From Bacteroidota bacterium (GTDB taxonomy: Bacteria; Bacteroidota; Bacteroidia; AKYH767-A; 2013-40CM-41-45), in the NCBI GenBank assembly GCA_026391945.1, contig JAPLDA010000076.1, forward strand, positions 13,633-77,632: 64,000 nt of DNA, read 5' to 3'. Positions 6,809 through 51,961 of the stretch are shown here, piece after piece; positions within the stretch are counted from its first letter, which is position 1; each line of letters begins with the position of its first letter. The translations under genes and the position numbers were made by a program. The notes beneath the pieces were generated by a model, which was given only the letters and a program-made list of their open reading frames with translations, searched no databases and had not been told where the DNA came from.

Positions 6809-8341
6809 ATGCTGAGAACTGGGAGAAAACTTTTTTTAGTCATTGCTTTCTTGGTCATGGCCAACGGTGTCTCCGCTACGCACATTGTGGGAGGTGACAT
6901 TGCCGTGAAATGGATGACCGGCAATGACTTCGAGGTAACCCTCACTTTTTTCCGTGACTGCAGCCCGACCTCCGCCGACTTCGACGCCATGGTGGAAGTC
7001 GGAATTTATGACAAGGTTTCGAACGTGATGGCGCTTTCATTCACCATGCCTTTGATTTCACGCGACACTCTACAGTTGGGCGATTCCTGTTTTACGCCAC
7101 AGAATTTATGCGTTGAGAAAGGAATTTTTCAAACGGTTCTTACCATCCCGCCTAACCCGGATGGTTATTACATCGCATGGCAACGCTGCTGCAGGAATTT
7201 CATCATCCTCAATATTCAGAATCCAGGTGCAGCCGGAATGGTCTTCTATGCTGAAGTTCCTGATCCTGCACTGCATGATAACTCACCTGTTTTTGGTTCC
7301 TACCCGAATGCCTACATGTGTGCAGGCGAAGTGAACCTGAAATCATTCGCCTGTTATGATCCGGATGGTGATTCGCTGGCCTATTCGCTGGTGACGCCGA
7401 TGAATGGTTTCACCGATCAAACCAATGTCGGTCAATATCCCGGTGCTGTAGTTCTCACTCCCGGCCCTTATCCCGGCATCGCATGGCAGTCGCCTTACGA
7501 TGCTTTCGATATGATGGGAGGTTCTCCGCCGATGAATATCAATACGAACACTGGGATGATCACCGCTCAGCCGGTGAATCTCGGTGTGTATGTTTTTGCA
7601 GTGAAAGTAGAGGAGTTCAGGAATGGAATGAAGATCGGGGAAGTCCGCAGGGATATACAATACCAGGTTCTGAATTGTCTTCTTATTTCTCCCCCGGTTT
7701 TTTCTTCGCCCGCAGTCACGACTGTTTCTTCATCGACATCGTCACTTGTTTATAACCTCGTTGCAGGCGATTCACTTTCTTTTGATGTCACGGTCACCAA
7801 TAACAATTCAGGTGATACTTTGTTTCTGAACGGATCATCTGAAATTTTTTCATCACAAATCCCGGGAATGCAGGCTTCATTTCGCAACGACAGCGGCCCC
7901 GGAACGGTTCAGCAAAAATTTATTTTGCAAACCGGTTGTGAAGCGATTCGTGAATCGCCTTACCAGGTTGATTTTTACGGCGTCAAACGCACGTGTTATG
8001 GCTTGATGATCACCGCCATTCATGTCGATATTTTTGTAAGGCCACCGCCCGAAGGGATGATCGATTCCCTGCTTCCGAATGTTTTCACTCCGAACAACGA
8101 TGGCGTCAATGAGTTTTTTCATGTCCGTGCCACCGGTGATTTTTGCCAGGATCAGTTCAGGTTCAGGATATACAACAGGTGGGGAACTCTGATGTATGAA
8201 ACAGAAGACTTCCGCTTTGAATGGGATGGGAAAAATAAAAACGGCAACAAACTTCCCGAAGGTGTCTATTATTACCTGATGGATGTTGAATTCAGGCACG
8301 ATTCCATTCATAAAAGAGGACTGATTCACCTGTGTTTATAG
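6809..8341 (+). CDS. Gliding motility-associated C-terminal domain (T9SS type B CTD) protein. Its Cys-rich N-terminal domain is paralogous to the gene at 1..2457.
   Basis: 510 aa; signal peptide; FFRDC and CCRN motifs. The C-terminus NVFTPNNDGVNEFF...WDGKNKNGNKLPEGVYYY matches the type B T9SS sorting domain. Confidence 0.8.
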   Translation: MLRTGRKLFLVIAFLVMANGVSATHIVGGDIAVKWMTGNDFEVTLTFFRDCSPTSADFDAMVEVGIYDKVSNVMALSFTMPLISRDTLQLGDSCFTPQNLCVEKGIFQTVLTIPPNPDGYYIAWQRCCRNFIILNIQNPGAAGMVFYAEVPDPALHDNSPVFGSYPNAYMCAGEVNLKSFACYDPDGDSLAYSLVTPMNGFTDQTNVGQYPGAVVLTPGPYPGIAWQSPYDAFDMMGGSPPMNINTNTGMITAQPVNLGVYVFAVKVEEFRNGMKIGEVRRDIQYQVLNCLLISPPVFSSPAVTTVSSSTSSLVYNLVAGDSLSFDVTVTNNNSGDTLFLNGSSEIFSSQIPGMQASFRNDSGPGTVQQKFILQTGCEAIRESPYQVDFYGVKRTCYGLMITAIHVDIFVRPPPEGMIDSLLPNVFTPNNDGVNEFFHVRATGDFCQDQFRFRIYNRWGTLMYETEDFRFEWDGKNKNGNKLPEGVYYYLMDVEFRHDSIHKRGLIHLCL

Positions 8342-12714: not shown

Positions 12715-14658
12715 ATGAGAATGAGGATGTACAAGTTCAAACGATTCTTCAAGTGGCTCGTGATCTGCATGGCAGGATTTGTCGTCGTCTTCTTTCTGGC
12801 GAGGAATGTTATCCTTCATAAAGTGTTTGAGCGGATGGCCGGGAAGATGAAGGAAAAGTACGGGACGGAAGTTTCAGTTTCTGAATTGCATTTTTCCGGA
12901 GTCAGTGGAATTGTTGTTACAAAACTGGCTGTCGTCCCGGAACATTCAGATACCTTGCTTACGGTGGATTCATTGTATGTGTGCCCGTCGTTGTTTCGTC
13001 TTCTCATCGGCAAAGCGAGGATCCATGAAGCAGTTGCCAGGAACATCTCCCTTTCAGTTGTCAGGAAGAAAGGGTTCAGCAATGTTGATCGGTTCTTTAA
13101 AAAATCAGAACCGGATTCAACAGGAAAACATGCCGGACGGAATTTTGCTCAGTCATTAAACCGCGTCGCCACCGGAACATTCGACCTGTTTCCACAACAG
13201 ATGAATCTTCAGAATATCTCTGTTCGTTATCAGCGTGACGATGATATTGAAAAAGTGATGATTCCTTTTGTGACGGCTACTGAAGAAGCCATCGAATCAT
13301 CCATTCTGAATCTTCGGGATTCTTCGCAATGGAACTTGTCCGGGAATTTCTCTCAGCGTAAAAGAACATGTGATTTCAAAATTTTTCCCGGTGACACTGT
13401 CCCAACCGATTTACCGTTTCTTCAAACTTTGTTTTCGGTGAAATGCCGGTTCGATACGTTGCATGTCATGTTAAGCAAGTATGATTATTCCGGCGGACAG
13501 GCAGGTTTTTCAGGAAATGTTTCCACCGACCGTTTTTTTCTTCAGCATCCGAAAATCTCCGATGAGCCGGTCGGAGTGGATCATGCTGATTTCAGTTTCA
13601 GTTTCCGCGCAACGAAAAATTCTTTTTCACTGGATACAACCTCTATACTGGAACTGAATAAAATATTGCTTCATCCATCTTTCGAAATTACGAATGACGA
13701 AAAGAAAGTTTACAAGATTGGAATGGAAACGGAACGTCTTTCTGCCAACGATTTCTTCAATTCGCTTCCTTCCGGAATTTTTGATGAAGTGAATGGGGTG
13801 AAGGCAGATGGAACTCTTCAGTATTCACTTGGTTTCAGAATGGATTCATCTCAACCCGACAGCCTGTTTTTTAATTCTTCCATGAAGAAAGAAAGTTTCA
13901 GGCTGAGAAATCCCGGCAAAGAAAATCTTCTGAAGATGAATGAGGAATTTCTGTTTTCCGTTTTTGAACAGGAAAAATTTGTACGGTCTTTTTTGGTAGG
14001 ACCTTCCAATCCCGGATTTACTCCGTTGCTGCAGATAGCTCCGTCTTTTAAAAATGCCGTGATGACTTCTGAAGACGGAAGTTTTTTCTTCCACAACGGA
14101 TTTAATGAAGACGCTTTCAGGAAATCGATTGCAGCCAATTACCAGGCAGGAAAATTTGTCCGCGGCGGAAGCACCATTACCATGCAACTGGTAAAAAATG
14201 TTTTTCTCAACCGTCATAAAACCATTGCAAGAAAGGCCGAGGAAGCGCTCATCGTATGGCTCATCGAAAGCAATCATCTCTGCAGCAAGGAGCGCATGTT
14301 CGAAGTGTACCTGAACATCATCGAACTCGGTCCCGGCATTTATGGTATCGGTGAAGCATCCCGTTTTTATTTCAACAAAAAACCTTCGGAACTGAACCTT
14401 GCGGAAAGTGTTTTCCTCGCCAGTCTATTGCCGCGGCCGAAATGGTTTAAATATTCTTTTGATGAAACCGGTAACCTGAAACCCTATTTTGCCGGTTACT
14501 ACCGCGTGGTCGCGAATTTTTTATTGAAGAAGAACCTGGTCACACAGGAGGAATATGATCACCTGGAACCGCGTGTTGAATTGAAAGGGCCTGCTAAAAA
14601 CCTGGTCAGCCCGGCCGATAGTTTGCCGGCTTTGGAAGAAGAAAAAGAAACGGATTAA
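12715..14658 (+). CDS. Membrane-anchored protein with an AsmA-like N-terminal region fused to a C-terminal GT51 peptidoglycan glycosyltransferase (transglycosylase) domain
   Basis: 647 aa. GT51 motifs: EDGSFFFHNGFN (motif I), GGSTITMQLVKN (II), RKAEEA (III), EVYLNIIELGPGIYGIGEASRFYF, LAESVFLASLLPRP. N-terminus has a TM anchor followed by beta-rich repeats. Confidence 0.65.
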   Translation: MRMRMYKFKRFFKWLVICMAGFVVVFFLARNVILHKVFERMAGKMKEKYGTEVSVSELHFSGVSGIVVTKLAVVPEHSDTLLTVDSLYVCPSLFRLLIGKARIHEAVARNISLSVVRKKGFSNVDRFFKKSEPDSTGKHAGRNFAQSLNRVATGTFDLFPQQMNLQNISVRYQRDDDIEKVMIPFVTATEEAIESSILNLRDSSQWNLSGNFSQRKRTCDFKIFPGDTVPTDLPFLQTLFSVKCRFDTLHVMLSKYDYSGGQAGFSGNVSTDRFFLQHPKISDEPVGVDHADFSFSFRATKNSFSLDTTSILELNKILLHPSFEITNDEKKVYKIGMETERLSANDFFNSLPSGIFDEVNGVKADGTLQYSLGFRMDSSQPDSLFFNSSMKKESFRLRNPGKENLLKMNEEFLFSVFEQEKFVRSFLVGPSNPGFTPLLQIAPSFKNAVMTSEDGSFFFHNGFNEDAFRKSIAANYQAGKFVRGGSTITMQLVKNVFLNRHKTIARKAEEALIVWLIESNHLCSKERMFEVYLNIIELGPGIYGIGEASRFYFNKKPSELNLAESVFLASLLPRPKWFKYSFDETGNLKPYFAGYYRVVANFLLKKNLVTQEEYDHLEPRVELKGPAKNLVSPADSLPALEEEKETD

Positions 14659-20632: not shown

Positions 20633-21391
20633 GTGGTAACAAATAGCATGAAGTCATCATCAGAAAAGAAAAAGGTTGAAGTGTGCAGTTCACCGCTGCT
20701 CTTCGACCTGTATGATTCATCGGACAGCATTGTCGTGGTGATTGATGTGCTGCGTGCCACTTCTTCCATCTGTGTCGCTTTTGAACACGGCGCAGAAAAA
20801 ATAATTCCGGTCGCCGGTGTGGAAGAAACGAGAGCTTACAAGGAAAAAGGATTTGTGATTGCCGCCGAACGCGACGGTGAAAAACTGGATGGTTTTGATC
20901 TCGGAAATTCACCGTTTGGTTTCATGGGCGACACGGTAAAAGGAAAATCAATTGCCATTTCCACCACCAACGGAACGCAGGCGATTCATGTTGCAGGAAA
21001 ATCAAAACAGGTAGTCATTGGTTCATTCCTGAACCTGGATGTTCTTTGTGAATGGCTCGTCCGGCAGGAAAGTAATGTATTGTGTTTATGTTCCGGGTGG
21101 AAAAACCGTTTCAACCTCGAAGATACGCTGCTTGCCGGAGCCATTGTTCAGCGGCTGAAAAATTCAGATGCGTATCATTCTCACTGTGATTCAGCCATTG
21201 CAGCAGAACATCTTTATCAATTGGCAAAAAAGGACCTGTTTGGTTTCCTTGAAAATTCCTCTCACCGGAGAAGGTTGAAAAAATTACACATCGAACGTGA
21301 TATTGAATATTGCCTTACACCGAACCAGGCGCCAGTTATCCCGGTTTTGCAAGGAGGTGTTTTAGTAAAATTAATTGAAGTCTTTTCCTGA
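20633..21391 (+). CDS. 2-phosphosulfolactate phosphatase (ComB) family protein
   Basis: 252 aa; VVIDVLRATSS...GNSP motifs of the ComB family. Confidence 0.7.
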   Translation: MVTNSMKSSSEKKKVEVCSSPLLFDLYDSSDSIVVVIDVLRATSSICVAFEHGAEKIIPVAGVEETRAYKEKGFVIAAERDGEKLDGFDLGNSPFGFMGDTVKGKSIAISTTNGTQAIHVAGKSKQVVIGSFLNLDVLCEWLVRQESNVLCLCSGWKNRFNLEDTLLAGAIVQRLKNSDAYHSHCDSAIAAEHLYQLAKKDLFGFLENSSHRRRLKKLHIERDIEYCLTPNQAPVIPVLQGGVLVKLIEVFS

Positions 21392-23159: not shown

Positions 23160-24800
23160 ATGAAAATCGCCAGGATAATTATTTTTTTTCTTCCTTTTTT
23201 TTCTTCGGCTCAAACGTCGAAGTATTTCATTCAGTTTACCGATAAGAATAACAGTCCTTACTCGGTTTCCAGTCCTTCCGCTTTTCTTTCTTCGCGTGCC
23301 ATTGCAAGACGCGCCAGCCATGGGATAGCCGTTCAGCCGAATGATTTGCCTGTCAACCAAAATTACATCGACAGCGTGGTTGCCAAAGGCGCTGTGATCC
23401 GGACGCGTTCCAAATGGTTTAATGGCGTGACGATTGAAGCGGATACCAATACACTTCATGCAGTGACGGCACTTCCGTTTGTTCAGCAGTCCACAAAAGT
23501 TTTTCGTGTTCGTTCATTTTCTGATGATCAGCACCCTGAAAGAAAATTTCAGTCATGGCCGATACGCGATGAAAATAATTCCATGAAAACTCAGTCGTAT
23601 AGTTATGGCCAGTCGTTCGACCAGATTCACATCATGCATGGTGACTACTTGCACGATTCAGGATTTCATGGTGAGAACATGGTGATTGCCATTCTCGACG
23701 CGGGTTTTTATCATGTTGATTCGCTTCCAGCTTTTGATAGTTTGAGAGTGAATGGCCAGATCCTCGGCACGTGGGATTTTGTTACCGGCGACAGCAGCGT
23801 GTACGAAGATTATGATCATGGCATGTCGGTTCTTTCCACGATCGGCGGAAATATTCCCGGGCAACTGGTAGGAACCGCTCCCAAAGCCGGTTTCTGGCTG
23901 CTTAGAACGGAAGATATTTTTTCTGAACATGTGATTGAAGAATACAACTGGGATGCAGGAGCGGAGTATGCCGACAGCGTGGGCGCCGATGTCATCACCA
24001 CTTCACTGGGCTACACGCAATTCAATAACCCGGCGGAGAATCATACGCGTGCCGATATGAACGGTCATACCACACCTTGTGCAAAGGCAGCCAACATCGC
24101 CTTCTCAAAAGGTATGATGGTGATGGCAAGCGCGGGAAACGACGGTGGAAATTTCTGGCAATACATCGGCACACCGGCTGACGGCGACAGCGTGATGGCG
24201 GTGGGTGCGGTGAACACGTTTGGAAACTATGCAACATTCAGCAGCACCGGTCCTTCGTCGGATGGTGATGTAAAACCCAATGTGGCGGCGGTGGGGCAGG
24301 GCACCACGATTTCCATTTACAACGGAGCCATCGGTAACGGCAACGGAACTTCTTTTTCGTGCCCGGTTTTAGCGGGAAGCGCCGCCTGCTTATGGCAGGC
24401 ATTCCCGAATAAAACCAACCGGGAAATTTTTGATGCCATTCAGCGAAGCGCTTCACAGGCCTTGAACCCGGATTCATTGCTTGGATATGGCATTCCCAAT
24501 TTCCTGTTAGCTGACCAGTTGCTTGGTGGTGTGGATGTGAACGTAAAGCATGATGAAATCATTTCTGTTTTTCCAAACCCCGCGCGAAACCGTGTTTATA
24601 TAAGCGGATATTCATCAGCAGGAAAAAAGGTCGCTGTTAATATTTTTGATTTGCCCGGCCGGCAGGTACCGATTCATTTTTCTTTTATTAATAATGGAAG
24701 TGATATCGAAGCGGACATCTCTTCACTTTCTTCCGGCATTTATTTTTTACAATTCCAGGATGAACTGAAAACAGTGGTGAAGAAGTTGGTGAAAGAGTAA
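23160..24800 (+). CDS. S8 family serine peptidase (subtilisin-like) with T9SS type A C-terminal sorting domain
   Basis: 546 aa; catalytic D (ILDAG), H (HGMSV) and S (GTSFSCP) boxes. The C-terminal ~80 aa (VFPNPARNRVYISG...IYFLQF) resemble the Por secretion tail. Confidence 0.8.
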   Translation: MKIARIIIFFLPFFSSAQTSKYFIQFTDKNNSPYSVSSPSAFLSSRAIARRASHGIAVQPNDLPVNQNYIDSVVAKGAVIRTRSKWFNGVTIEADTNTLHAVTALPFVQQSTKVFRVRSFSDDQHPERKFQSWPIRDENNSMKTQSYSYGQSFDQIHIMHGDYLHDSGFHGENMVIAILDAGFYHVDSLPAFDSLRVNGQILGTWDFVTGDSSVYEDYDHGMSVLSTIGGNIPGQLVGTAPKAGFWLLRTEDIFSEHVIEEYNWDAGAEYADSVGADVITTSLGYTQFNNPAENHTRADMNGHTTPCAKAANIAFSKGMMVMASAGNDGGNFWQYIGTPADGDSVMAVGAVNTFGNYATFSSTGPSSDGDVKPNVAAVGQGTTISIYNGAIGNGNGTSFSCPVLAGSAACLWQAFPNKTNREIFDAIQRSASQALNPDSLLGYGIPNFLLADQLLGGVDVNVKHDEIISVFPNPARNRVYISGYSSAGKKVAVNIFDLPGRQVPIHFSFINNGSDIEADISSLSSGIYFLQFQDELKTVVKKLVKE

Positions 24801-33064: not shown

Positions 33065-33453
33065 AATAATCAACTGTTCTATCGCTCCGTTTACACGGAG
33101 AGGAAAGTCCGGGCAACACAGAGCATCCTGCTTCCTAACGGGAAGGGTTCTGCAGCAATGCGGAAAACAGCCAGTGCCACAGAAAATAACTACTCATCAG
33201 AAATGATGAGAAAAGGTGAAAACGTGAGGTAAAAGCTCACGGTCATGGTTGGCGACAACGGTGACGGGTAAACCTCAGGAGTTGAAAAACCAAATAAGTC
33301 CCGATTTTGAAACGGCTCGTTTCAATTCGCCTTTGGCGGATATCGGGATGGGTAGGTTGATAGATGGTGCAGGCAACTGCACTGCCAGATAAATGATAGA
33401 AGTCCTCCGCCTTTGGCGTGAGAAAACAGAACCCGGCTTACAGGTTGGTTATT
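33065..33453 (+). ncRNA. rnpB: RNase P RNA (bacterial type A)
   Basis: Universally conserved GAGGAAAGTCCGGGC (33099-33113) and ACAGAACCCGGCTTA (33426-33440). P3 hairpin ctccg-tttaca-cggag. P1 pairing AAUAAUCAACUG / CAGGUUGGUUAUU. Ends are approximate. Confidence 0.85.
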
Positions 33454-33456
33454 AAA

Positions 33457-35587: not shown

Positions 35588-35768
35588 TTTTTTGTGATCG
35601 GGTTGATTTGAACTTTCAGGCGATTGGGGGAAGTCGGGAATAAAGAATCAAGAGTCAAGAATCAAAAATCAAGAGCATTACCTCAATCGACTTAATCAAC
35701 CATTCAACTCACAAACTAAAAGATGAGAGGACACCGTTGATTAGAAAAAATATTTCAATTGAATGACG

Positions 35769-35852
35769 TGCCCGGAGTGGGACTCGAACCCACAAGGTAA
35801 TTACACCAACGGCTTCTGAGACCGCAACGTTTGCCAATTTCGCCATCCGGGC
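35769..35852 (-). tRNA. tRNA-Leu, anticodon CAG (type II, long variable arm)
   Basis: Reverse complement folds into acceptor GCCCGGA/TCCGGGC, anticodon loop CTCAGAA, 15-nt variable arm, T-arm GTGGG-TTCGAGT-CCCAC. Confidence 0.8.
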
Positions 35853-35918
35853 AAATGCAATTCAGAATGATTTTCTACACTCGTTCAATTCATCATTCTG
35901 AATTCTTAATTCCTAAAG

Positions 35919-35998
35919 TGCCCAGGACGAGAGTCGAACTCGTACGGTTGCCCGCCACCCCCTCAAAGTGGTGCGTCTGCCAATTTCGCCACCTGGGC
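35919..35998 (-). tRNA. tRNA-Leu, anticodon GAG (assignment tentative; the variable arm is only ~11 nt)
   Basis: Reverse complement: acceptor GCCCAGG/CCTGGGC, D-arm identical to the neighbouring tRNA-Leu, anticodon stem CCACT/GGTGG with loop TTGAGGG, T-arm ACGAG-TTCGACT-CTCGT. Confidence 0.65.
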
Positions 35999-36145: not shown

Positions 36146-37633
36146 TCAATAGTACCGTAGACGGATCACATCAGCAAGATGCTTGGCATAACGAACCACC
36201 TGGCGGCTGTAACCATATTCGTTGTCATACCATACATACAACACCACCGATTTATTGTCTTTGGAAACAATGGTTGCCGGGCTGTCGAAAATGGAAGCAC
36301 AAGGATTGCCAACAAGATCTGAAGAAACCAGTTCGTTGGAAATGGAATATTGTATCTGTTCAACCAGGTCGCCGCGCAAAGCTGCATCCCGCATGATCTC
36401 GTTGATGCCTTCTTTGCTGGTTTCTTTTTTGACCACCAGGTTTAGAATGGCCAGTGAAACATCAGGAGTCGGCACACGAACGGCATTGCCGGTAAGTTTT
36501 CCAGCCAATGGAGGAATTACTTTGGCAACGGCTTTATCGGCACCGGTTTCAGTGATCACCATATTCAGCGGAGCTGAACGTCCGCGCCTGTATTTCTTGT
36601 GATAATTATCAAGAAGGTTTTGGTCATTGGTGTAAGAATGGATCGTCTCAATGTGTCCTTTTTCAATACCTAAAACATTTTCAATGACGGCGAGAACAGG
36701 TACAATGGCATTGGTGGTGCAGGATGCCGCAGAAAAAATCTTCTCCTTTTCGGAATCAAAAGAATTTTCATTCACACCGTAAACGACATTTGGAATATCA
36801 CCTTTGCCGGGCGCTGTGAGTAAAACTTTATCAACGCCTTTTGATTTCAGGTGAAGCCCGAGTCCTTCCCGGTCGCGGACAATTCCCGTATTATCAATAA
36901 TCAAAGCATTGTTGATTCCGTAAGCTGTATAATCAATCGAACTCATGTCGTTTGAGGCGATCATGTGTATCGTATGTCCGTTCACAATTAACGCTTTGTT
37001 CTTAAAGTCTTCGATCACTGTTCCTGGAAATGTTCCGTGAACAGAATCGTTGCGAAGTAATTCAGCACGTTTATTAATATCGATGTCGCTGTTGTTTCTT
37101 GTTACGACAGCCCGCAAGCGCAGTTGCTCTCCTTTGCCTGCCTGTGATACCAGTTCACGCATCAGCAAACGGCCGATTCTGCCAAATCCGTACAGTACCA
37201 CATCACGGGGAATAATTTTCCTTTTTTCCTTCCCGATGAAGTCAACCATTTTGTCACCAATAAAATCTTCCGCGCTTTTGTATTTTTTCTTTTCGGCAAT
37301 CCATTCAAAACCCAGGCGGCCAATGTCGATGCGGGAAGGAGCGAGGTCAAGTTTATTCAGTTCTTTCACCAGCATCAGCGTATCCAGTGCATTGATCGGT
37401 TTTTTTACAATATCTTTTGCATACTGGTGCAGGCTGAGAATTTCGCTGGCACTCCGGTCGAACAATTGGTTTCTGAATAAAACCAGTTCAACCGATTTGT
37501 CATACCAAAGTGTTCCGGTCAGATGAATGATTTCGATGGCTGCTTTCTCAAGCTGGATCCAGTCGGCCAGTTCATTTTCGTATTTGTCTTTGTGATTCAC
37601 GGTGGGTTCTTCTTTAAGTGTATAGGAAGTCAT
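36146..37633 (-). CDS. Glyceraldehyde-3-phosphate dehydrogenase family protein with an unusual ~130-aa N-terminal extension
   Basis: 495 aa; NAD site VVLYGFGRIGRLL starts near residue 150; active-site ASCTTNAIVP; C-terminal WYDNEYGYS. Confidence 0.7.
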   Translation of the reverse strand: MTSYTLKEEPTVNHKDKYENELADWIQLEKAAIEIIHLTGTLWYDKSVELVLFRNQLFDRSASEILSLHQYAKDIVKKPINALDTLMLVKELNKLDLAPSRIDIGRLGFEWIAEKKKYKSAEDFIGDKMVDFIGKEKRKIIPRDVVLYGFGRIGRLLMRELVSQAGKGEQLRLRAVVTRNNSDIDINKRAELLRNDSVHGTFPGTVIEDFKNKALIVNGHTIHMIASNDMSSIDYTAYGINNALIIDNTGIVRDREGLGLHLKSKGVDKVLLTAPGKGDIPNVVYGVNENSFDSEKEKIFSAASCTTNAIVPVLAVIENVLGIEKGHIETIHSYTNDQNLLDNYHKKYRRGRSAPLNMVITETGADKAVAKVIPPLAGKLTGNAVRVPTPDVSLAILNLVVKKETSKEGINEIMRDAALRGDLVEQIQYSISNELVSSDLVGNPCASIFDSPATIVSKDNKSVVLYVWYDNEYGYSRQVVRYAKHLADVIRLRYY

Positions 37634-40546: not shown

Positions 40547-41071
40547 ATGAGCCGATATTCAAACAAGCAGCTGATCACCGAAATCCGGAACGGCAACGAA
40601 GACGTGCTGGATTTCCTGGCCACGAAATATTTTTCCCATGCAAGAAGAGTGATTCGGTTAAAAGGAATTAAAGATTCAACGGCCCCGGAACTTTTTTCGA
40701 TCGTGCTGGTGAAAGCCTGGTTCGATGTTCTGTTCCATAAGTTACCGGCGAACATCGACTTTGAAGCATTTTTTTACAGCAGCCTCGAAGATTACATCAG
40801 GGAACTGAAAGACAGGAAAAAAAACAATTCGTTAAAGAGTGATTCGTTGTTTTCCAATCATCAGAAAGAGGTTGTTGCGCAATGTGTTTTCATTCTGGAT
40901 GAGCAGGCAAAAAAGCTGGTGCATGCACACTATGGTGAGAAACTGAGTTTTGAAAAAATCGCCAGCCGCTTTAATTACAGCAATGCCGTTATCGCACAGC
41001 ATGAAGTGAACAAAGCCATGAACCAACTGGAAGGAATTGTAAAACTCCGCCTCAATATCTCTGCTAACTGA
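40547..41071 (+). CDS. Sigma-70 family (ECF-like) RNA polymerase sigma factor
   Basis: 174 aa; region 2-like ELFSIVLVKAWFDVLF; region 4 HTH LSFEKIASRFNYSNAVIAQHEVNKAMNQL. Confidence 0.65.
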   Translation: MSRYSNKQLITEIRNGNEDVLDFLATKYFSHARRVIRLKGIKDSTAPELFSIVLVKAWFDVLFHKLPANIDFEAFFYSSLEDYIRELKDRKKNNSLKSDSLFSNHQKEVVAQCVFILDEQAKKLVHAHYGEKLSFEKIASRFNYSNAVIAQHEVNKAMNQLEGIVKLRLNISAN

Positions 41072-41072
41072 C

Positions 41073-42029
41073 ATGAGCCTCGTCCCGGAAGATAAAAACC
41101 TCGTGAACCGTTACCTGAATGATGAACTCAGCGGGATCGAACTTGAACATTTTCGTACGAGGATGTCGGGTGATGATTCCTTCGCCAGGGAAGTGAATTT
41201 TCAAAGTCTCCTTCGCACCGGGATATTGTTTTCCAGGGAGGAGGAATTGAAGAAAAGAGTGTTGGGAAAAATCAGGTTCAGGAAAACCAGGATTCCATTT
41301 GCCTTGAAACTGATTTTTACATTCCTGGTGGTAACTGTTTTGGGCATCACACTTTGGTTTTATGTTGGCACCGATTCAGCGAATAAAATTCACGTCAATT
41401 CTTTTTTTTCATTCATATCAAAAGACAAGGAAAAAAAAGCCACCAGGAAAACCAGTGAGGCAAAAAAAGAAACCTCCGGGAGCGAGGTGCCGGAGAACAC
41501 CTCATCAGATGTCGCTGCTGAAGGTGAAACACGGAATGATTTAATGGCCACAGATGGTCTGGATGTTTCAAGGGAAAATGATGTTCACGAAGTTGACACT
41601 TCTCAAATTCAGAATAGCGAAGAGATCGTGATCAAAAAAGACCAGCTGCTGATTACGTCAACGATTGCCGTCATTGAGAAACCTGTTTCAGATGCACATG
41701 CTGCCGAGCTTTCATCCGGACAGTCGCTTGCTAAAGAAGCGGCTCAGAAATTAAACCCGGCTGCCGGTATTCCCGATGAACCAAAGGTATCACCGGAGAT
41801 GGTGGTTGAATTCTGGGTTTCACCGGTCAATTACCATGGATATAAAATGTCGAAAAACAAACTGATTCTTTTTGGCATCGAAGAACCGGATGCCGTCAAA
41901 CTCTACCGCACGAACGATATGTTGTTTATGAAATATGGAAATGATTATTTCCGGCTGATCAATTCATTTGACTTCCTCTCTTACCAGCGATTGAAAGAAA
42001 CAGAAATTCCTTTGGCCATCAGGCAATGA
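41073..42029 (+). CDS. Putative anti-sigma factor: short cytoplasmic N-domain, one TM helix, extended low-complexity periplasmic region
   Basis: 318 aa; starts 2 nt after the sigma-factor stop; TM LIFTFLVVTVLGITLWFYV; E/S/T-rich periplasmic segment. Confidence 0.55.
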   Translation: MSLVPEDKNLVNRYLNDELSGIELEHFRTRMSGDDSFAREVNFQSLLRTGILFSREEELKKRVLGKIRFRKTRIPFALKLIFTFLVVTVLGITLWFYVGTDSANKIHVNSFFSFISKDKEKKATRKTSEAKKETSGSEVPENTSSDVAAEGETRNDLMATDGLDVSRENDVHEVDTSQIQNSEEIVIKKDQLLITSTIAVIEKPVSDAHAAELSSGQSLAKEAAQKLNPAAGIPDEPKVSPEMVVEFWVSPVNYHGYKMSKNKLILFGIEEPDAVKLYRTNDMLFMKYGNDYFRLINSFDFLSYQRLKETEIPLAIRQ

Positions 42030-42814
42030 AAATGACATTCTGGAAATACCATGGTACGGGCAACGATTTCATCCTAATAGATGACAGGGATGACCATGTG
42101 CATTTAAGCCAGGCGCTGATTCAGCAATTGTGCGAACGAAGATTTGGAATTGGTGCTGATGGATTGATCATTCTAAGGAACTTCGACGGGTACGACTTTA
42201 AGATGACCTATTACAACGCCGACGGCAACGAAGGGAGCATGTGCGGAAACGGCGGAAGGTGCATCACCGCGTTTGCAAAAGCCATCGGAAAGATCGTCAA
42301 CGAAGCATTTTTCTCTGCTTCCGACGGTGATCACCGTTCTATTATCACCGCGGAATCGCCCATCACCGTAAAATTAAAAATGAACGATGTACAGGAAGTG
42401 GAAGTTCATGAAGATTTTATTTTTCTGGATACCGGCTCTCCGCATTATGTGAAGTTTGTGGAGGATGTCACGTCTGTTGATGTTGTATCAGAAGGCAGGG
42501 AAATCAGGAACAGCAGTCGTTTTAAAAAGACTGGTACCAATGTGAATTTTGTACAAACATCCGGCAGTGAATTAATAGTGCGGACGTATGAACGCGGTGT
42601 TGAAGATGAAACATTATCTTGCGGAACCGGTGTAACGGCTTCTGCCATTGCTGCCGTCGTTAATGGAAAATTAAAGGCTGATGCCGGTACAGTTGATATC
42701 CTGACCATCGGGGGAAAATTAAAAGTTTACTTTGAAAAGGAGGATGGCGGATTTAAAAACATCTGGCTTGAAGGCGGCGCTGCCCTTGTTTACAAAGGCG
42801 AAGTGCACATTTAA
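42026..42814 (+). CDS. dapF: Diaminopimelate epimerase
   Basis: 262 aa; KYHGTGNDFILIDD and the two catalytic Cys regions (MCGNGGRC, SCGTG). Confidence 0.85.
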   Translation: MKMTFWKYHGTGNDFILIDDRDDHVHLSQALIQQLCERRFGIGADGLIILRNFDGYDFKMTYYNADGNEGSMCGNGGRCITAFAKAIGKIVNEAFFSASDGDHRSIITAESPITVKLKMNDVQEVEVHEDFIFLDTGSPHYVKFVEDVTSVDVVSEGREIRNSSRFKKTGTNVNFVQTSGSELIVRTYERGVEDETLSCGTGVTASAIAAVVNGKLKADAGTVDILTIGGKLKVYFEKEDGGFKNIWLEGGAALVYKGEVHI

Positions 42815-42838: not shown

Positions 42839-43390
42839 ATGCAGTTAATAGGTGAATTAATTCAACTCCGGGCTCTTGAACCATCCGATCTCGACCAGCT
42901 TTACAAATGGGAAAACGATACTGCCATCTGGTCGGTGAGTGGAACACTTGCACCTTTCTCGCGTTTTGTACTGGAGCAGTACCTTGCTTCTTCGCATGAA
43001 GACATCTATTCCAATAAGCAACTCCGGTTAATCATCGACCTCACCATTCACGATGATGAAGGACAAGTGGATAATGATTCACGGCCGATTGGTTGTATTG
43101 ATCTTTTTGATTTTGATCCCAAGAACCGGAAAGCAGGTGTTGGAATTCTGATTGCCGACCGCGCCGATCGCGGAAAAGGGTATGCTACGGAAGCATTGAA
43201 TCTCCTCGTTGATTATTGTTTTGACATCCTGGATCTCCACCAGCTGTTTTCGAATGTTCGTGTTGACAATGAAAACAGCGTGGCTCTGTTTAAGAAAGTC
43301 GGCTTTGAAGTTACCGGGCTTAAACAGGATTGGATTCTCTACAGCGGCAGATGGTACGATGAATACACCATGCAGTTGATCAAAAAATAA
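42839..43390 (+). CDS. GNAT family N-acetyltransferase (RimJ/RimL-like)
   Basis: 183 aa; acetyl-CoA binding region GVGILIADRADRGKGYATEAL. Confidence 0.7.
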   Translation: MQLIGELIQLRALEPSDLDQLYKWENDTAIWSVSGTLAPFSRFVLEQYLASSHEDIYSNKQLRLIIDLTIHDDEGQVDNDSRPIGCIDLFDFDPKNRKAGVGILIADRADRGKGYATEALNLLVDYCFDILDLHQLFSNVRVDNENSVALFKKVGFEVTGLKQDWILYSGRWYDEYTMQLIKK

Positions 43391-43411: not shown

Positions 43412-45487
43412 TTGACGATTGTGCAGGTACAAAAATCCTCTTTTCAAGGCATTAAATTTTTTGCAATTCCCGTTGTTTATTATTCCATCTTTCTTTTTTC
43501 ATCCTGCCATTCTTCAAACCGTGATGAACAACAACATGCCTATGCTTCGTTGTCGGATTCAGCAACGTATGTGGGAATCAATGTATGCAAGCAATGTCAC
43601 CAGGCGATTTATGAAACGTTTATTCAAACCGGTATGGGAAAATCGTTTGATACCGTTTCCCGATCTAAATCTTCTGCCGTGTTTGATGAGTCTGCCGTCA
43701 TTTATGACAAGTACAGAAATTTCTATTACCATCCGTTCTGGAAAAACGATTCATTGTTCCTCTATGAATTCCGTCTTGAAGGCGCTGATACTGTTTACCG
43801 GAGAACTGAAAAAATAAATTTCATTGTCGGTTCCGGCCAGCACACCAATTCTCACCTGACGATGGTTCATCCTTCCCATGATGAACACGGCGGATATGTT
43901 TACCAGGTTCCTGCAACTTATTACACGCAGAAAGGAACATGGGATTTGCCTCCCGGATTTGAGAACGGGTACAACAATCGTTTCAGCAGGAAAATAGAAC
44001 TCGAGTGCATGACTTGCCACAATGCATACCCAAACATGATTGCCGGTTCTGAAAATAAATTTGAATCTGTTCCGAACGGCATCGACTGTGAGCGGTGCCA
44101 TGGCCCCGGAAGTGCGCATGTAAAGCAAATACAAGCCGGAATTCTCGTTGACACCGCAAAGAGAATCGACTATTCCATTGTGAACCCGGCCAAACTTCCC
44201 GTCGCACTTCAGATGGATATCTGCCAGCGGTGTCACATCCAGGGCAACGCAGTTTTGAATGATGGAAAATCTTTTTTTGATTTTCGACCGGGCATGCTGC
44301 TTTCAGATGTGATGAATGTATTCATGCCGGTATTCAAGGGTGATGAAAATACACACATCATGGCATCGCATGTTGAACGGTTGAAGATGAGCCGCTGTTT
44401 TATTGCCGGCATGCAAAAATCAGGAAAGGAAAAAACAAAGGACAACTTAAGGCCGTTTAAAAATGCACTGACTTGCCTAACCTGTCACAATCCTCACGTC
44501 AGCGTGAGAGTAACCGGCAATGAAGTCTTTACCCGGGCGTGTAAAAATTGTCACCACGATCATGCAGCGGGGAATGATAAAGATGAAAAGATATTGCTTT
44601 GTTCAGAAACGATGGAGAAGAGGATGCTGCTGAATGATAATTGTGTAACGTGTCACATGCCTAAAAACAACACGATCGATATTCCGCATGTCACTTCAAC
44701 GGATCATTTTATCCGCAAGCCGGCGATGAAAGATGAGGTGAAAAAAATAAAGGAGTTCCTTGGCCTGGCCTGTATCAACAATCAAAATCCGCCTCGAAAG
44801 GCGGTTGCAGGAGCGTATCTTTCTTACTATGAAAAATTCAGTTCATTACCGGCTGTCCTCGACTCGGCAAAATATTATCTGGATGACGGAACTTCGGAAG
44901 AACTGAAGAGGAACTTCAACGACCTCGTGCGGTGGGCATTTTTGAAAAATGATCCGGCTCTTGTGATCCGGTATGCTGAAAGGGCAGGGGATGTATTTTC
45001 TTTTCTAAACAGGAAAAATTTCAGCAACGAAGATGCCTGGACGGCTTACCGCATCGGTGAATCATTTTATTCGAAGGACAGCGTTGAACTTGCCATTTCT
45101 TATTTCAGGCGTGCCGTTGATTTGGAATCGTTCAATCTTGAATTCAGGAATAAGCTGGCTTCTGCGGAAATGGATCTTGGCTGGAATGATGAGGCAGGAA
45201 AAAACTTCTTATTCATACTCAATGAAAATCCAAAATTTGTTTCTGCCTGGACGAACATCGGGTATCTCATTCTCACTGCTGATCATAACCTGGCCAAAGC
45301 AGATTCATGTTATTCAAAAGCGCTGGAACTCGATCCGGATAACGAACAGGCATTGATGAACAAAACCGGTATCCTGTTCATTCAGCATAGAAAAAAAGAT
45401 TCAGAAAAAATGTTGCGTAAAATATTGAAGAGGTATCCTGCCAATGAGAAAGCGAGGGCGTTGCTTCATTCTCTTGAAAGAAATTAA
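43412..45487 (+). CDS. Multiheme c-type cytochrome lipoprotein (seven CxxCH motifs) with a C-terminal TPR-repeat region
   Basis: 691 aa; lipobox LFSSC. Heme motifs CKQCH, CMTCH, CERCH, CQRCH, CLTCH, CKNCH, CVTCH, found by reading the translation. C-terminal ~230 aa are TPR-like (YFRRAVDL, YSKALELDPDNEQAL). Confidence 0.7.
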   Translation: MTIVQVQKSSFQGIKFFAIPVVYYSIFLFSSCHSSNRDEQQHAYASLSDSATYVGINVCKQCHQAIYETFIQTGMGKSFDTVSRSKSSAVFDESAVIYDKYRNFYYHPFWKNDSLFLYEFRLEGADTVYRRTEKINFIVGSGQHTNSHLTMVHPSHDEHGGYVYQVPATYYTQKGTWDLPPGFENGYNNRFSRKIELECMTCHNAYPNMIAGSENKFESVPNGIDCERCHGPGSAHVKQIQAGILVDTAKRIDYSIVNPAKLPVALQMDICQRCHIQGNAVLNDGKSFFDFRPGMLLSDVMNVFMPVFKGDENTHIMASHVERLKMSRCFIAGMQKSGKEKTKDNLRPFKNALTCLTCHNPHVSVRVTGNEVFTRACKNCHHDHAAGNDKDEKILLCSETMEKRMLLNDNCVTCHMPKNNTIDIPHVTSTDHFIRKPAMKDEVKKIKEFLGLACINNQNPPRKAVAGAYLSYYEKFSSLPAVLDSAKYYLDDGTSEELKRNFNDLVRWAFLKNDPALVIRYAERAGDVFSFLNRKNFSNEDAWTAYRIGESFYSKDSVELAISYFRRAVDLESFNLEFRNKLASAEMDLGWNDEAGKNFLFILNENPKFVSAWTNIGYLILTADHNLAKADSCYSKALELDPDNEQALMNKTGILFIQHRKKDSEKMLRKILKRYPANEKARALLHSLERN

Positions 45488-45501
45488 CCTGGCAACTCAG
45501 G

Positions 45502-46395
45502 TCATTTAATGTTATCCAGTTTTTTTTCTACGACTTTTGTAGTTTCTTTTTGCAAACTGATTTCAGTTTTCTTCGACTTTTGTGCATCCTCGTTCTTTTC
45601 AATATTTCTTTTCTGCTGCCTGCTGTCAGCCTCGTAATCTTCAATGTCATCGTGCAGGTTGTCACTTTTCTTTTCCAGTTTTTTCTTTTCTTTTTCGAGG
45701 TCTTTCAGTTTTTTTTCAGCAAGGTCTTTTTCTTCCCCTTTGGATCCGGCAAACGACCGCACGGTTTCTTTCTGGCTGGCTATTTCACCGGCTCTTGCTT
45801 CCTGTTCTTTCCGGTTCGTTGCGATGGCATCCTTGCATTTATCAATCTTCCTGTCGTTGTCGTTGATCCTCCTGTTTGATTTTTCAATACTTTTTACCAG
45901 GCTTTCCAGTTCATCCTCCAGCCGGGATAGTTTCTTTCGTTCGTTGTCCAGTTCGTGACCGACTGCAATCCTGTATTGCTGAACCACGAAGTCACGAATG
46001 AATTTCCTGGCGGCAATTGATTTTTCATCTGACAAAGCAGAAGAAATAAAAATGGAATCATCTTCAGTAAAAAAAGCAGAGATCATGACTCCTTGTTCCG
46101 TCTCCAGCAGTTTTGAATACACATTCAAAGGATTCGCAGAGACGTTTTTAATCAGTGTGCCACGAATGATGATTTCATTGTTGAGTTCTTCAATAGTATT
46201 CTTGGTTTCATGCCGGATGTATTTCTTCCAGGCAGAAGCGACTTCTTTCAGTTTGGCCTGCGGCACCTCTGTCACATACCCGTTCTGCATCCCTTTGCTC
46301 ATGCTTTTTGGCACCTCGCTGATCGTCATTTCTTTTTGTGAAAAAGCTGCGGACGAGATGAACAGCAAGAGAAAGAGAAACCTGTTTGTTTTCAT
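45502..46395 (-). CDS. Secreted coiled-coil protein with K/E-rich low-complexity C-terminus
   Basis: 297 aa; signal peptide; heptad-like KKLEKK/ELESLVKSIEK repeats. The plus-strand ORFs over this span are low-complexity shadows. Confidence 0.5.
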   Translation of the reverse strand: MKTNRFLFLLLFISSAAFSQKEMTISEVPKSMSKGMQNGYVTEVPQAKLKEVASAWKKYIRHETKNTIEELNNEIIIRGTLIKNVSANPLNVYSKLLETEQGVMISAFFTEDDSIFISSALSDEKSIAARKFIRDFVVQQYRIAVGHELDNERKKLSRLEDELESLVKSIEKSNRRINDNDRKIDKCKDAIATNRKEQEARAGEIASQKETVRSFAGSKGEEKDLAEKKLKDLEKEKKKLEKKSDNLHDDIEDYEADSRQQKRNIEKNEDAQKSKKTEISLQKETTKVVEKKLDNIK

Positions 46396-46452
46396 GAGGG
46401 TTAGTGATTGGAAATATTTATAAAATGAATTCGGAATATCAAATCATGAATA

Positions 46453-46527
46453 GTCGGGGTGAGTGGATTCGAACCACCGATCTCAACGTCCCGAACGTTG
46501 CGCGATAACCGGGCTTCGCTACACCCC
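46453..46527 (-). tRNA. tRNA-Pro, anticodon CGG
   Basis: Reverse complement: acceptor CGGGGTG/CACCCCG (same acceptor as the tRNA-Pro at 2835), anticodon stem CAACG/CGTTG with loop TTCGGGA, T-arm GGTGG-TTCGAAT-CCACT. Confidence 0.8.
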
Positions 46528-46635
46528 GAAATCATGTCTCAAAGGAAAGAACATTTTTCATAAATAAAAAAATCCGCTCTGCATTTCAGCAGAACGGACT
46601 TATCAAAACACCACCACTATGTATTTTTAATTTCT

Positions 46636-47202
46636 TTAATTCAGACTTGGGTCTTCAGGGAAGTTGGCAAGAATGGCATACTGGCTTCCCATGGTTCTCA
46701 GAACCTGTCCCCACAATTCATCCGGATGATCGGAAAATGCAAATTCTCTTTTACAACTCGATACCAGCCATGTTTTTCCCTTCAGTTCATCTTCCAGTTG
46801 CTGAGGTTCCCAGCCGCTGTAGCCGGCAAAAAAACGGATATCATGTTTGTTGACCTGGTTGGTTTCTATCAATAGTTTCAGCATTTCGAGATTTCCACCC
46901 CAATAGATGCCGGGAAAAATTCTCTTGCTTCCCTCTAATTTTGGTCCCAGTGTGTGAAGGAAATGGATCGTATCTGTTTGTACCGGCCCACCGAAATGGA
47001 GTTGTACGTCAAACGGTGGAAAATCTTCCAGTGCATCATTCAGGCTTAAGTCCGTTGGTTTGTTGAGGATGAATCCGACGGTGCCTTCCTGGCCATGTTC
47101 GCCAAGGAGGATAACCGAACGTTTAAAATAAGAATCGAGGAGAAATGGTTCTGACACCAGGATTTTCCCGACACCGGGTTCGATGTGTATTAATTTCCTC
47201 AT
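46636..47202 (-). CDS. YqgE/AlgH family protein (UPF0301)
   Basis: 188 aa; GVGKILVSEPFLLDSYFKRSVILL...GFILNKP family signature. Confidence 0.75.
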   Translation of the reverse strand: MRKLIHIEPGVGKILVSEPFLLDSYFKRSVILLGEHGQEGTVGFILNKPTDLSLNDALEDFPPFDVQLHFGGPVQTDTIHFLHTLGPKLEGSKRIFPGIYWGGNLEMLKLLIETNQVNKHDIRFFAGYSGWEPQQLEDELKGKTWLVSSCKREFAFSDHPDELWGQVLRTMGSQYAILANFPEDPSLN

Positions 47203-50305: not shown

Positions 50306-51961
50306 TCAATGAACAACTAATAATTTTTTAGTCAGCTGATCATCTCCGGCACGAAGAGCATACATGTAATAACCGGCAGGGATTTGCGTGACATCCATTT
50401 TAAATTGATGAGCACCGGCACTGAGGTTATTGTTTTCGAGAGTTGCCATTTTATTTCCAACGAGGTCGAAGACTTCCAGTGTCACGTGATCTGGTTTAAC
50501 CAGTTCAAAACTGATGATCGTGGATTCATTCGCCGGGTTCGGGTAATTCTGATCCAGTGTGAATTTATGCTGATGATGTTCCTGTACACCCATGAATGAA
50601 TTTTCTGCATCGAACAACGCAAGCGAAAGAGAGAATGGTCCGCGGGTTTCAATCCAGGCAAAGTCTGCCATGGTAAAGCTAGGGTCAATCACTACCTGCG
50701 GATGCGGGTTATTTAAAATTCCAACCTGGTCGTTGTAAAGTGTAGTGATCATGTTCCAGGATGTAGGAGTTGCCATGTTGAATCCCTGTACATAATAAGG
50801 AAGTTGATTGTTGGTGGAATCCCAATAGGTAACCAGGAAGTTGTTGTAGGTTTCATCGTAGCTGATATCCGGTTGCTGCGCATGATTTCCGGAATAATCA
50901 ACGTAGCCATAATACCAGGCACCTCCAACGGCAATTTTTGAATAAGCTCCTACAATGTCGAGGTCATCGGTGCCGCCCCAGGCGCTTTCCCAAAGCACCA
51001 CTGCGGATAAATCTGAGCTGTCGTTATTTGCCAATGAATTCTGAACACTGATAGCAGGATACCTTCCGTTGTTGTACCAGTTCGAGGTGTATACACTATC
51101 GAGGTAAACCGGTGTTGCATAAGGATCATTAAATAAGGTAGGAGTATACGTTTCTTTGATATGCCCGTAAGGGGCGCCAAAGGCATGCTCATCATAGGCA
51201 ATGAAATAGCGGCCGTTATTTCTGCTTGCTGAATATCCATAAGCGACGGAAACATTTCTGAAAAATAAACTGGAAGCATCCACACCATTCCTGGTTGCGA
51301 ATGTTGCACCGCCATCCGAAGAAACCAGGGAAATAACTGAATCCTGGGGAGATCCATACTTTGAATACACGGCATTCACGCTATAACCCGTTGTAGTAAA
51401 GGCAGGGTGAAGAAAGTCATTGGCAAGTGCCACATCATAAATGGAATCCGAAGTAGTTTCATGCACCGGTTCATTCATAAAAGAACCTGTTGTTGCATCA
51501 TTCCGGTCCACCCAAAGTATATAGGTGCCGGATAAAGGCGTATGCAGGACACTTGTCAAATAAACATGCAAAGAATTGGTGTCGTTACCGGCAACGGAAA
51601 TATCGCAGCCGTAGTAATCGCCGCTATAATGGATCAGGGTATCCCAATCCTGTCCGTGATTTTTGGAACGCATCAGGCAGATACCCCCGCCGTTTGCGTA
51701 ATCAGTCGTGAAGGCGGCATAATTCCATCCATTGAAGGCAGTAGCAATTTTGACATTACTCTGCATTTGAAATGCAGGGTTGATGACGACATCCGACCCG
51801 AATACTAACATCGACGGAGTTTTTACCGGGCCTTTGTTTTTCATGTTCAGCGCTTTTACTTTTTCAGGATCTCCCTTCTGATGATCCGCCGCAAGCATTG
51901 GAGAACTCAGAAAGAGTATGAGTGAAAACGACCATACTAGTTTCATGTAATTTTTTTTCAT
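50306..51961 (-). CDS. Hypothetical secreted protein with T9SS type A C-terminal sorting domain
   Basis: 551 aa; signal peptide; C-terminal NYPNPANESTIISFEL...GYYMYALRAGD resembles the Por secretion tail. Central domain not recognised. Confidence 0.6.
   Translation of the reverse strand: MKKNYMKLVWSFSLILFLSSPMLAADHQKGDPEKVKALNMKNKGPVKTPSMLVFGSDVVINPAFQMQSNVKIATAFNGWNYAAFTTDYANGGGICLMRSKNHGQDWDTLIHYSGDYYGCDISVAGNDTNSLHVYLTSVLHTPLSGTYILWVDRNDATTGSFMNEPVHETTSDSIYDVALANDFLHPAFTTTGYSVNAVYSKYGSPQDSVISLVSSDGGATFATRNGVDASSLFFRNVSVAYGYSASRNNGRYFIAYDEHAFGAPYGHIKETYTPTLFNDPYATPVYLDSVYTSNWYNNGRYPAISVQNSLANNDSSDLSAVVLWESAWGGTDDLDIVGAYSKIAVGGAWYYGYVDYSGNHAQQPDISYDETYNNFLVTYWDSTNNQLPYYVQGFNMATPTSWNMITTLYNDQVGILNNPHPQVVIDPSFTMADFAWIETRGPFSLSLALFDAENSFMGVQEHHQHKFTLDQNYPNPANESTIISFELVKPDHVTLEVFDLVGNKMATLENNNLSAGAHQFKMDVTQIPAGYYMYALRAGDDQLTKKLLVVH

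Follow-up and report, generated by a model that had tools for sequence, protein, structure and literature searches.

A seven-heme cytochrome c with a tetratricopeptide repeat tail in uncultured Bacteroidota: probable new architecture in the c554/MccA/OcwA clade and putative periplasmic reductase

Here we describe a gene for a seven-heme c-type cytochrome fused to a tetratricopeptide repeat (TPR) solenoid, found in a 64-kb stretch of DNA (64,000 nucleotides of contig JAPLDA010000076.1, hereafter the window) from a Bacteroidota genome. Its heme domain very probably belongs to the clade of multiheme cytochromes that includes c554, MccA and OcwA, in which it takes a new architecture, and overall the protein would best be read as a periplasmic heptaheme reductase or electron-transfer protein. 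We tentatively favour, as quite possible, a periplasm-facing lipoprotein enzyme that reduces a small N- or S-oxyanion or nitric oxide (NO). The heme count, the homology, the domain order and the conservation form the solid basis of this account. The clade has been described as small and known mostly from a few anaerobes; in the survey that defines it, relatives of OcwA and OmhA are scarce (Soares et al. 2022). What is new here is the fusion of seven hemes to a TPR domain, on a lipoprotein, within this already known clade; our literature searches found no paper on a comparable multiheme-TPR fusion in Bacteroidota.

Read from a TTG start at 43412, the open reading frame (ORF) encodes 691 aa; gene callers prefer a GTG at 43421 (688 aa), and the identical gene on a Logan contig, an independent assembly of the same DNA, was also called as 688 aa. 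CxxCH occurs exactly seven times in the translation (aa 59, 199, 226, 271, 355, 377 and 411), and CxxCK, CX11CH, CX15CH and CX17CH do not occur. When the residues were shuffled 20,000 times with their composition kept, two or more CxxCH arose in only 3 cases, and this is the sole CxxCH-bearing ORF among those of at least 80 aa in all frames of the window. Conservation was followed in two sets, a close Bacteroidia subfamily of 58 homologues and a wider set of 36 sequences at about 35-66% identity, and all seven motifs are unchanged throughout both (58/58 and 36/36). The N-terminus is that of a bacterial lipoprotein, with a signal peptide ending in a lipobox whose cysteine, C32, is present in every close homologue (58/58) and in 28 of the 36 sequences of the wider family. 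Lipoproteins that Bacteroidota export to the cell surface carry an acidic lipoprotein-export signal (LES) after the lipobox cysteine. No acidic cluster follows C32 in the window protein, and none is conserved there in the homologues; because this signal is absent, the putatively lipid-anchored cytochrome is predicted to face the periplasm. The preliminary description of this DNA had proposed a seven-heme c-type lipoprotein with a TPR tail, and this is borne out by the invariant motifs, by the cysteine invariant among close homologues, and by the assignment of the tail by Pfam, AlphaFold2 (AF2) and Foldseek. We note, as a peculiarity of this one protein, a His-rich insertion in a loop of the beta-sheet domain (VHPSHDEH, aa 152-159, 43865-43888) that is absent from 57/57 aligned homologues.

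The tail consists of tandem 34-residue helix-turn-helix repeats that form a solenoid. Pfam TPR matches fall at aa 540-690, with TPR_8 and TPR_1 exceeding their cutoffs, Foldseek aligns the tail with consensus TPR superhelices (E~1e-8), and PDB sequence searches likewise return TPR proteins. The heme domain is far better conserved than this region, in which only the structural residues G617, A630 and P642 are kept family-wide and almost no surface residues are. Since the TPR region keeps only structural residues, a single conserved binding partner is disfavoured; the pattern fits self-association or general docking, with the repeats standing in place of oligomerisation helices.

Pfam and NCBIfam searches of the whole protein gave generic multiheme and TPR matches only, none of them diagnostic, with weak matches to models of MtrC/MtrF domain II/IV, cytochrome c7, c3, c554 and Paired_CXXCH. 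Single-sequence searches of the PDB were swamped by the TPR region, and heme-only profiles were therefore required. A profile of the heme domain alone (A3, 26 sequences), run against all PDB sequences, matched OcwA (6i5b, E=8e-18), MtrA (6r2q_A, a chain mislabelled in the file, E=4e-15), OmhA (6qvm, E=6e-9), several entries of NrfA (E ~1e-7), MccA (4rkm, E=2e-7) and cytochrome c554 (1bvb, E=2e-6), and a profile of the N-terminal module matched OcwA at E=3e-14 and c554 at E=9e-8. Motif by motif, hemes 1-7 of the window protein correspond to OcwA hemes 1, 2, 3, 4, 6, 7 and 8. Of the multiheme families that the preliminary description had named for a search, MtrA-like cytochromes and c554 were matched by profile; the decaheme family models stayed far below cutoff (40.2 bits versus 192.2, and 53.8 versus 325, for DmsE/MtrA TIGR03508 and GSU2203 NF041028). 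Membership of either decaheme group was rejected on these scores and on the count of seven hemes, not ten. Nor is the protein one of the cbb3 oxidase or ActA subunits, which the same description had named as well-known housekeeping families to be set against its reading: CcoP of cbb3 oxidase (6xkx) scored E=0.098, Pfam Cytochrome_CBB3 E=0.065 (14 bits versus a cutoff of 27) and ActA of alternative complex III (6lod_A) E=1.1, and the window contains neither Cco nor Act genes.

In the published classification, c554, MccA, OcwA and OmhA form one clade of the NrfA superfamily (Soares et al. 2022). The catalytic heme lies in the N-terminal module in c554, MccA and OTR, and in both modules in OcwA and OmhA; in c554, MccA and OcwA the catalytic heme of the N-terminal module is heme 2, a heme 2 that binds substrate is found in this module in every member characterised, and all tested members of the clade reduce nitrite or NO in vitro. 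In the window protein the heme motifs follow one another in the order, and at the spacing, that are conserved for the N- and C-terminal modules, the heme domain is similar in fold, and a beta-sheet domain lies between hemes 1 and 2 as in the sub-group of OcwA and MccA. It has CxxCHGPGxxH at heme 3 in common with OcwA, OmhA and c554. The C-terminal three-helix oligomerisation bundle is missing, with a 14-helix TPR solenoid following heme 7 instead; the bundle is also absent from c554 and OTR. A Foldseek search with the full-length model returned TPR proteins only. Taking together the profile matches and motif mapping, the insert and the published clade, we therefore regard the window protein as, very probably, a pruned member of the clade. 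Hemes 1-4 with the beta-sheet insert would represent a c554-type N-terminal module, hemes 5-7 the first three hemes of an NrfA-type C-terminal module, and the TPR domain an apparent graft.

Conservation around the hemes bears on function. Across the 36 sequences of the wider set only four non-motif histidines are invariant (H236, H362, H426 and H432); further candidate ligands are M416 (34/36), H320 (30/36, 83%) and M75 (31/36, with Lys in the other 14%). Seven residues that are not candidate ligands are also found in 36/36, namely R193, D269, R323, S327, C329, D423 and D431, while R190, W177, P167, Y171, Y106 and the G140-S-G142 loop are kept in at least 90%. M75 lies exactly 12 residues past the heme 1 histidine, a position taken by a histidine in OcwA and by His27 in c554, and according to the OcwA paper these proteins resemble one another only in their heme motifs, their distal ligands and the helix bundle. 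Because of its alignment position and these limits on similarity, M75 probably replaces the distal histidine, which would give one His/Met heme. The wider family appears to offer at most six conserved distal-ligand candidates for its seven hemes, and heme 2, catalytic by homology, would be the natural candidate for the heme without one. R323 aligns, with moderate posterior only, with His253 of the OcwA chain (= H282), a conserved histidine that lies above heme 2 and acts in catalysis. The invariant C329 has no second Cys of equal conservation to pair with; in the polysulfide-reducing MccSep a Cys ligates the catalytic heme 2, and in MccA Cys residues beside heme 2 hold Cu. As far as sequence can indicate, this pattern favours an active site over a simple wire.

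In the reductase that we tentatively favour, electrons from periplasmic respiratory-chain carriers would enter the heme chain and travel through hemes 7 to 3 and heme 1 to heme 2. Heme 2 would be open or Cys-ligated, with its pocket lined by the invariant or near-invariant R190/R193, R323, S327 and C329, and a small N- or S-oxyanion, or NO, could be reduced there, in detoxification or auxiliary respiration, with the TPR domain serving assembly and self-association or docking at the membrane. Several observations weigh against such an enzyme. The profile match to MtrA, a pure wire, is strong; the heme-only AF2 model (low confidence, with a predicted local distance difference test score, pLDDT, of 61) gave nothing significant in Foldseek; three residue-level alignments established no sequence equivalence to the catalytic residues of MccA, to whose K393/C399 the R323/C329 of the window protein might correspond; the moderate posterior around R323 weakens its pairing with H282; and no conserved reductase-type partner, regulator or substrate-related gene lies beside the cytochrome in any lineage examined. 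In addition, the close subfamily has seven invariant extra histidines (H144, H148 and H320 beyond the four of the wider family), which could be enough for six-coordinate hemes throughout and so close the site. These histidines, together with the match of hemes 2-7 to MtrA (E=4e-15), the weak matches to the DmsE/GSU2203 decaheme and MtrC domain II/IV models, the position of M75, suggestive of a His/Met heme suited to higher potentials, and the nature of TPR domains as protein-binding modules, speak for pure electron transfer. The cytochrome would then be a membrane-anchored periplasmic seven-heme wire or store in which every heme is six-coordinate and the TPR domain docks a redox partner (an oxidase, alternative complex III (ACIII) or an outer-membrane component). 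We hold this to be doubtful, if a serious contender. The extracytoplasmic electron-transfer scaffold suggested in the preliminary description is possible on the same grounds, but is weakened by the unconserved TPR surface, by the kinship with a clade of catalytic hemes and by the invariant residues of active-site type.

Two further proposals relocate the protein or its task, and both seem to us improbable, the second even more so than the first. Among known structures OcwA and OmhA, both of them surface reductases, come closest, many relatives are from lake, groundwater and sediment metagenome-assembled genomes (MAGs), and the source MAG itself appears to stem from a data set on a stratified lake, so that one might imagine an OcwA-like reductase for extracellular electron transfer (EET), carried to the outer leaflet like other surface lipoproteins of Bacteroidota. 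Against this, no acidic export signal is conserved behind C32 in the window protein or its homologues, the surroundings contain neither a porin nor another cytochrome or an EET gene, and in hundreds of genomes the gene sits amid housekeeping genes. The genomic neighbourhood could instead point to the cell wall, with the cytochrome as a redox sensor or adaptor of the envelope, a TPR lipoprotein like NlpI, LpoA or CpoB whose heme redox state tunes peptidoglycan enzymes. Its place in the cluster dapF-GNAT-[gene]-mltG, upstream of which lie htrA and a sigma/anti-sigma-like pair, the tight co-directional packing in the window and the frequency of GNAT, dapF and mltG as neighbours would suit that role, but the block includes rpoD and htrA on the opposite strand and may thus reflect shared ancestry within one Bacteroidia clade, distant members have unrelated neighbours, the window lacks mltG, and such a protein has no precedent. 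A bolder extension of the reductase reading, which we consider speculative and rather unlikely as a whole, would make the cytochrome the first-noticed member of a very large and so far unrecognised class of heptaheme enzymes of the periplasm, with a pruned OcwA/MccA core, an Arg/Ser/Cys pocket or His/Cys ligation at heme 2, and a TPR domain in place of the oligomerisation helices, reducing S- or N-oxyanions (or NO) in uncultured and for the most part aerobic Bacteroidota as well as in other bacteria, Planctomycetota-like ones included, and in Bacteroidia perhaps wired into a dapF-GNAT-mltG envelope operon.

The family itself is large. A word-indexed protein search gave more than 5,000 matches, and the best 120 are all full-length (about 600-700 aa), 50-66% identical, from MAGs of Bacteroidia/Bacteroidota, and annotated at most as 'tetratricopeptide repeat protein' or 'multiheme c-type cytochrome'; the 58 close homologues considered above are drawn from them. 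The closest match in this search was 66% identical and the window's own cytochrome was not among the matches, which probably reflects a gap in the index and not biology. When 50%-identity clusters were searched exhaustively by HMMER with only the heme domain (aa 31-460) as query, 4,426 clusters were recovered at E<=1e-3, 2,622 at E<=1e-10 and 1,129 at E<=1e-30. The complete ones among them are nearly all 600-750 aa long, and the heme-plus-TPR architecture is therefore the rule; 30 members reaching down to about 35% identity, many of them high-GC, all have exactly seven CxxCH followed by TPR. Scanning one genome per GTDB species confirmed at least 591 stretches that encode a relative, of which the best 80 all belong to MAGs of Bacteroidota, their habitats being lakes, glacier-fed streams, groundwater, rivers, soil and wastewater plants. 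The genome of the window itself does not occur among them, and the best match is 66% identical. The cytochrome family is thus common, not rare, and in the data searched comes from uncultured organisms only. This runs counter to the rarity supposed in the preliminary description, as a close relative is encoded in the genomes of hundreds of Bacteroidota species and the family comprises thousands of clusters.

In the window, the cytochrome gene is the last of a tight co-directional run (a 174-aa protein, a 318-aa membrane protein, dapF, GNAT and the cytochrome) with successive gaps of 1, -4, 24 and 21-30 bp, and dapF, GNAT and cytochrome are probably co-transcribed. The first two genes (40547-42029, + strand) deserve separate mention. 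The 174-aa protein is weakly similar to extracytoplasmic function (ECF) sigma factors (TIGR02937, E=4e-6, below cutoff); the 318-aa protein, single-pass and without a Pfam match, starts 1 bp after it, and the end of its gene shares 4 bp with the start of dapF. The 174-aa and 318-aa genes lie upstream of dapF in 17/80 and 36/80 relatives, respectively, and may encode a divergent sigma/anti-sigma pair. Neighbours were counted in 80 related loci. GNAT lies directly upstream on the same strand in 56 of the 70 loci with enough flank (median gap ~12 bp), dapF upstream in 50/66 and mltG (YceG) downstream on the same strand in 37/69, while htrA and rpoD are found on the opposite strand in 47 and 40 of the 80 loci. 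Within the window mltG is absent, the shared gene order ending right after the cytochrome stop. A tRNA-Pro(CGG) gene (46453-46528, - strand) lies between the coiled-coil gene described below and an AlgH/YqgE gene (region 45487-46636), and a synteny break beside it suggests a local rearrangement or an insertion at the tRNA.

Five distant members of the family have no neighbours in common. In one of these loci (L081, 10540-14748, encoding the distant non-Bacteroidia homologue P0239), the cytochrome-TPR gene is flanked by genes for a further two TPR proteins and for one FG-GAP/UnbV_ASPIC (CRTAC1-like) protein, an arrangement not seen in the other four. Because the conserved block holds opposite-strand genes and the five distant members have unrelated neighbours, we read the linkage as a gene order peculiar to the lineage, in which the genes are probably co-transcribed, and take from it no evidence on function. 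The 64-kb window contains no cytochrome-maturation genes (CcsBA/ResBC) and no other respiratory genes, ACIII and oxidase included, so the CcsBA genes that the preliminary description had in view as possible neighbours did not materialise. A sigma-70 promoter scan is not informative for Bacteroidota.

Immediately downstream, on the opposite strand, ORF composition confirms the secreted K/E-rich coiled-coil protein of 297 aa that had been described next to the cytochrome. Its N-terminus reads MKTNRFLFLLLFISSAAFS|QKE, K and E make up 19% and 15% of its C-terminal 158 aa, and the stop codons of the two genes lie 14 bp apart. It matches no Pfam family and has 22 homologues among 5.8 billion proteins. 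Its inclusion in a common system with the cytochrome did not survive the comparison of loci; the two are adjacent in only 1 of the 80 related loci, and with this count and 22 homologues overall the protein was rejected as a partner. The coiled-coil gene is a chance neighbour. Coordinates of the features discussed are collected in Table 1.

Table 1. Features of the cytochrome locus, with positions in the window, strand and the basis of each assignment
Feature	Position	Strand	Basis
dapF	42026-42814	+	Pfam
GNAT acetyltransferase	42839-43390	+	Pfam
Heptaheme cytochrome c-TPR lipoprotein gene	43412-45487	+	ORF; full-length homologues at 50-66% identity
Signal peptide and lipobox (FSS-C32)	43412-43507	+	Hydrophobic region, read from sequence
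Heme 1, CKQCH (aa 59-63)	43586-43600	+	Aligned to heme 1 of OcwA and c554
Beta-sheet domain between hemes 1 and 2 (aa ~97-178), with GSG loop	43700-43945	+	Strands in both AF2 models
Heme 2, CMTCH (aa 199-203), after conserved R190-F-x-R193	44006-44020	+	Counterpart of OcwA/c554 catalytic heme 2 by alignment
Heme 3, CERCH, then GPGSAH236	44087-44101	+	Motif count and alignment
Heme 4, CQRCH (aa 271-275)	44222-44236	+	Motif count and alignment
H320-x-x-R323-x3-S327-x-C329, candidate distal pocket of heme 2	44369-44398	+	Conservation and profile alignment
Heme 5, CLTCH, then NPH362	44474-44488	+	Corresponds to OcwA heme 6
Heme 6, CKNCH	44540-44554	+	Corresponds to OcwA heme 7
Heme 7, CVTCH, then MPK; next invariant D423, H426, D431, H432	44642-44656	+	Corresponds to OcwA heme 8
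TPR solenoid, 14 helices in 7 hairpins (aa ~462-690)	44795-45481	+	AF2 pLDDT >90
Short terminator-like hairpin between convergent stops	45485-45504		Consensus match only
Secreted K/E-rich coiled-coil protein, 297 aa	45502-46395	-	ORF; signal peptide; convergent to cytochrome

The rest of the window is an ordinary Bacteroidota chromosome, with cargo of the type IX secretion system (T9SS), TonB receptors, ubiE, housekeeping enzymes and RNase P RNA. Three T9SS cargo proteins are encoded at 6809-8341 (+), 23160-24800 (+) and 50306-51961 (-), one with a CHU_C domain, one an S8 peptidase with a Por_Secre_tail and one other with a Por_Secre_tail, and these confirm the Bacteroidota origin of the DNA. 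The RNA genes comprise a class A RNase P RNA (33066-33456, +, 245 bits), two tRNA-Leu genes (35768-35998, -) and a tRNA-Pro(GGG) (2835-2909, +). A glyceraldehyde-3-phosphate dehydrogenase (GAPDH)-like ORF of 495 aa at 36146-37633 (-) has its Gp_dh_N domain starting at aa 144, which leaves an N-terminal extension of about 140 aa, and a similar long form occurs in 38 related loci. At 20633-21391 (+), a ComB-type 2-phosphosulfolactate phosphatase (PF04029, E=3e-74), an enzyme uncommon beyond the coenzyme M and sulfolactate pathways, adjoins a glycine-cleavage T protein gene. Finally, a 647-aa protein at 12715-14658 (+) combines a C-terminal glycosyltransferase-51 (Transgly) domain with a long N-terminal region that has only a faint DUF748-like match, and appears to be a monofunctional peptidoglycan transglycosylase with an unusual N-terminal part.

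The family adds more than 1,000 50%-identity clusters to the clade, mostly from uncultured Bacteroidota of largely oxic habitats. If heme 2 is catalytic, these proteins would represent a widespread periplasmic redox activity that could matter for N/S cycling or detoxification in lakes, streams, soils and wastewater; if it is not, they would represent a common electron-transfer module in organisms not thought to be rich in multiheme proteins. Either way, the family is a further case that bears on the 'grafting and pruning' model of how multiheme cytochromes evolve.

Compared with known systems, the tail has a generic TPR solenoid in common with NlpI, CcmI/CycH and NrfG, which carry no hemes, and the matches of the window protein to these families all lie below the cutoffs (28.6 bits versus 42 for PF23914 TPR_CcmH_CycH, with the NlpI match likewise sub-threshold). 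To MtrA (6R2Q chain A) the likeness is one of heme-motif spacing, over hemes 2-7. MccA, the octaheme sulfite reductase of Wolinella succinogenes (4RKM), has an eighth heme and a helix bundle, neither of which is present in the window protein. Its hallmarks are a CX15CH/CX17CH heme 8, the Cu-binding C399/C495 and residues Y123, K208, Y285, Y301, R366 and K393, and with seven hemes and no CX15CH/CX17CH the window protein was not counted among the MccA sulfite reductases. The tetraheme c554 of Nitrosomonas europaea (1FT5/1BVB), whose heme 2 is five-coordinate, aligns motif by motif with window hemes 1-4; it has neither the beta-sheet insert nor the other three hemes nor a TPR domain, and carries His27 where the window family has M75.

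OcwA of Thermincola potens (PDB 6I5B) is a nonaheme terminal reductase at the cell surface of a Gram-positive bacterium, a wall protein, whereas the window protein is a lipoprotein of a diderm with seven hemes. The second catalytic heme of OcwA, heme 5 (CLKCH), sits in an OcwA-specific insertion without a counterpart in the window protein; its His/Met heme 9 and three-helix bundle also lack one, the TPR solenoid replacing the bundle. The catalytic His-His above heme 2 gives way to the R...S.C segment and the His at the distal position of heme 1 to M75. OcwA and OmhA proper have at least nine hemes, two of them catalytic, with H282 and H381, and the window protein, with seven hemes, hemes 5 and 9 absent and R323 at the position of H282, was not placed among them. 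The extra beta-sheet insert of OcwA (aa 75-156), a domain that OcwA has in common with MccA only, occupies the same place as aa 97-178 of the window protein.

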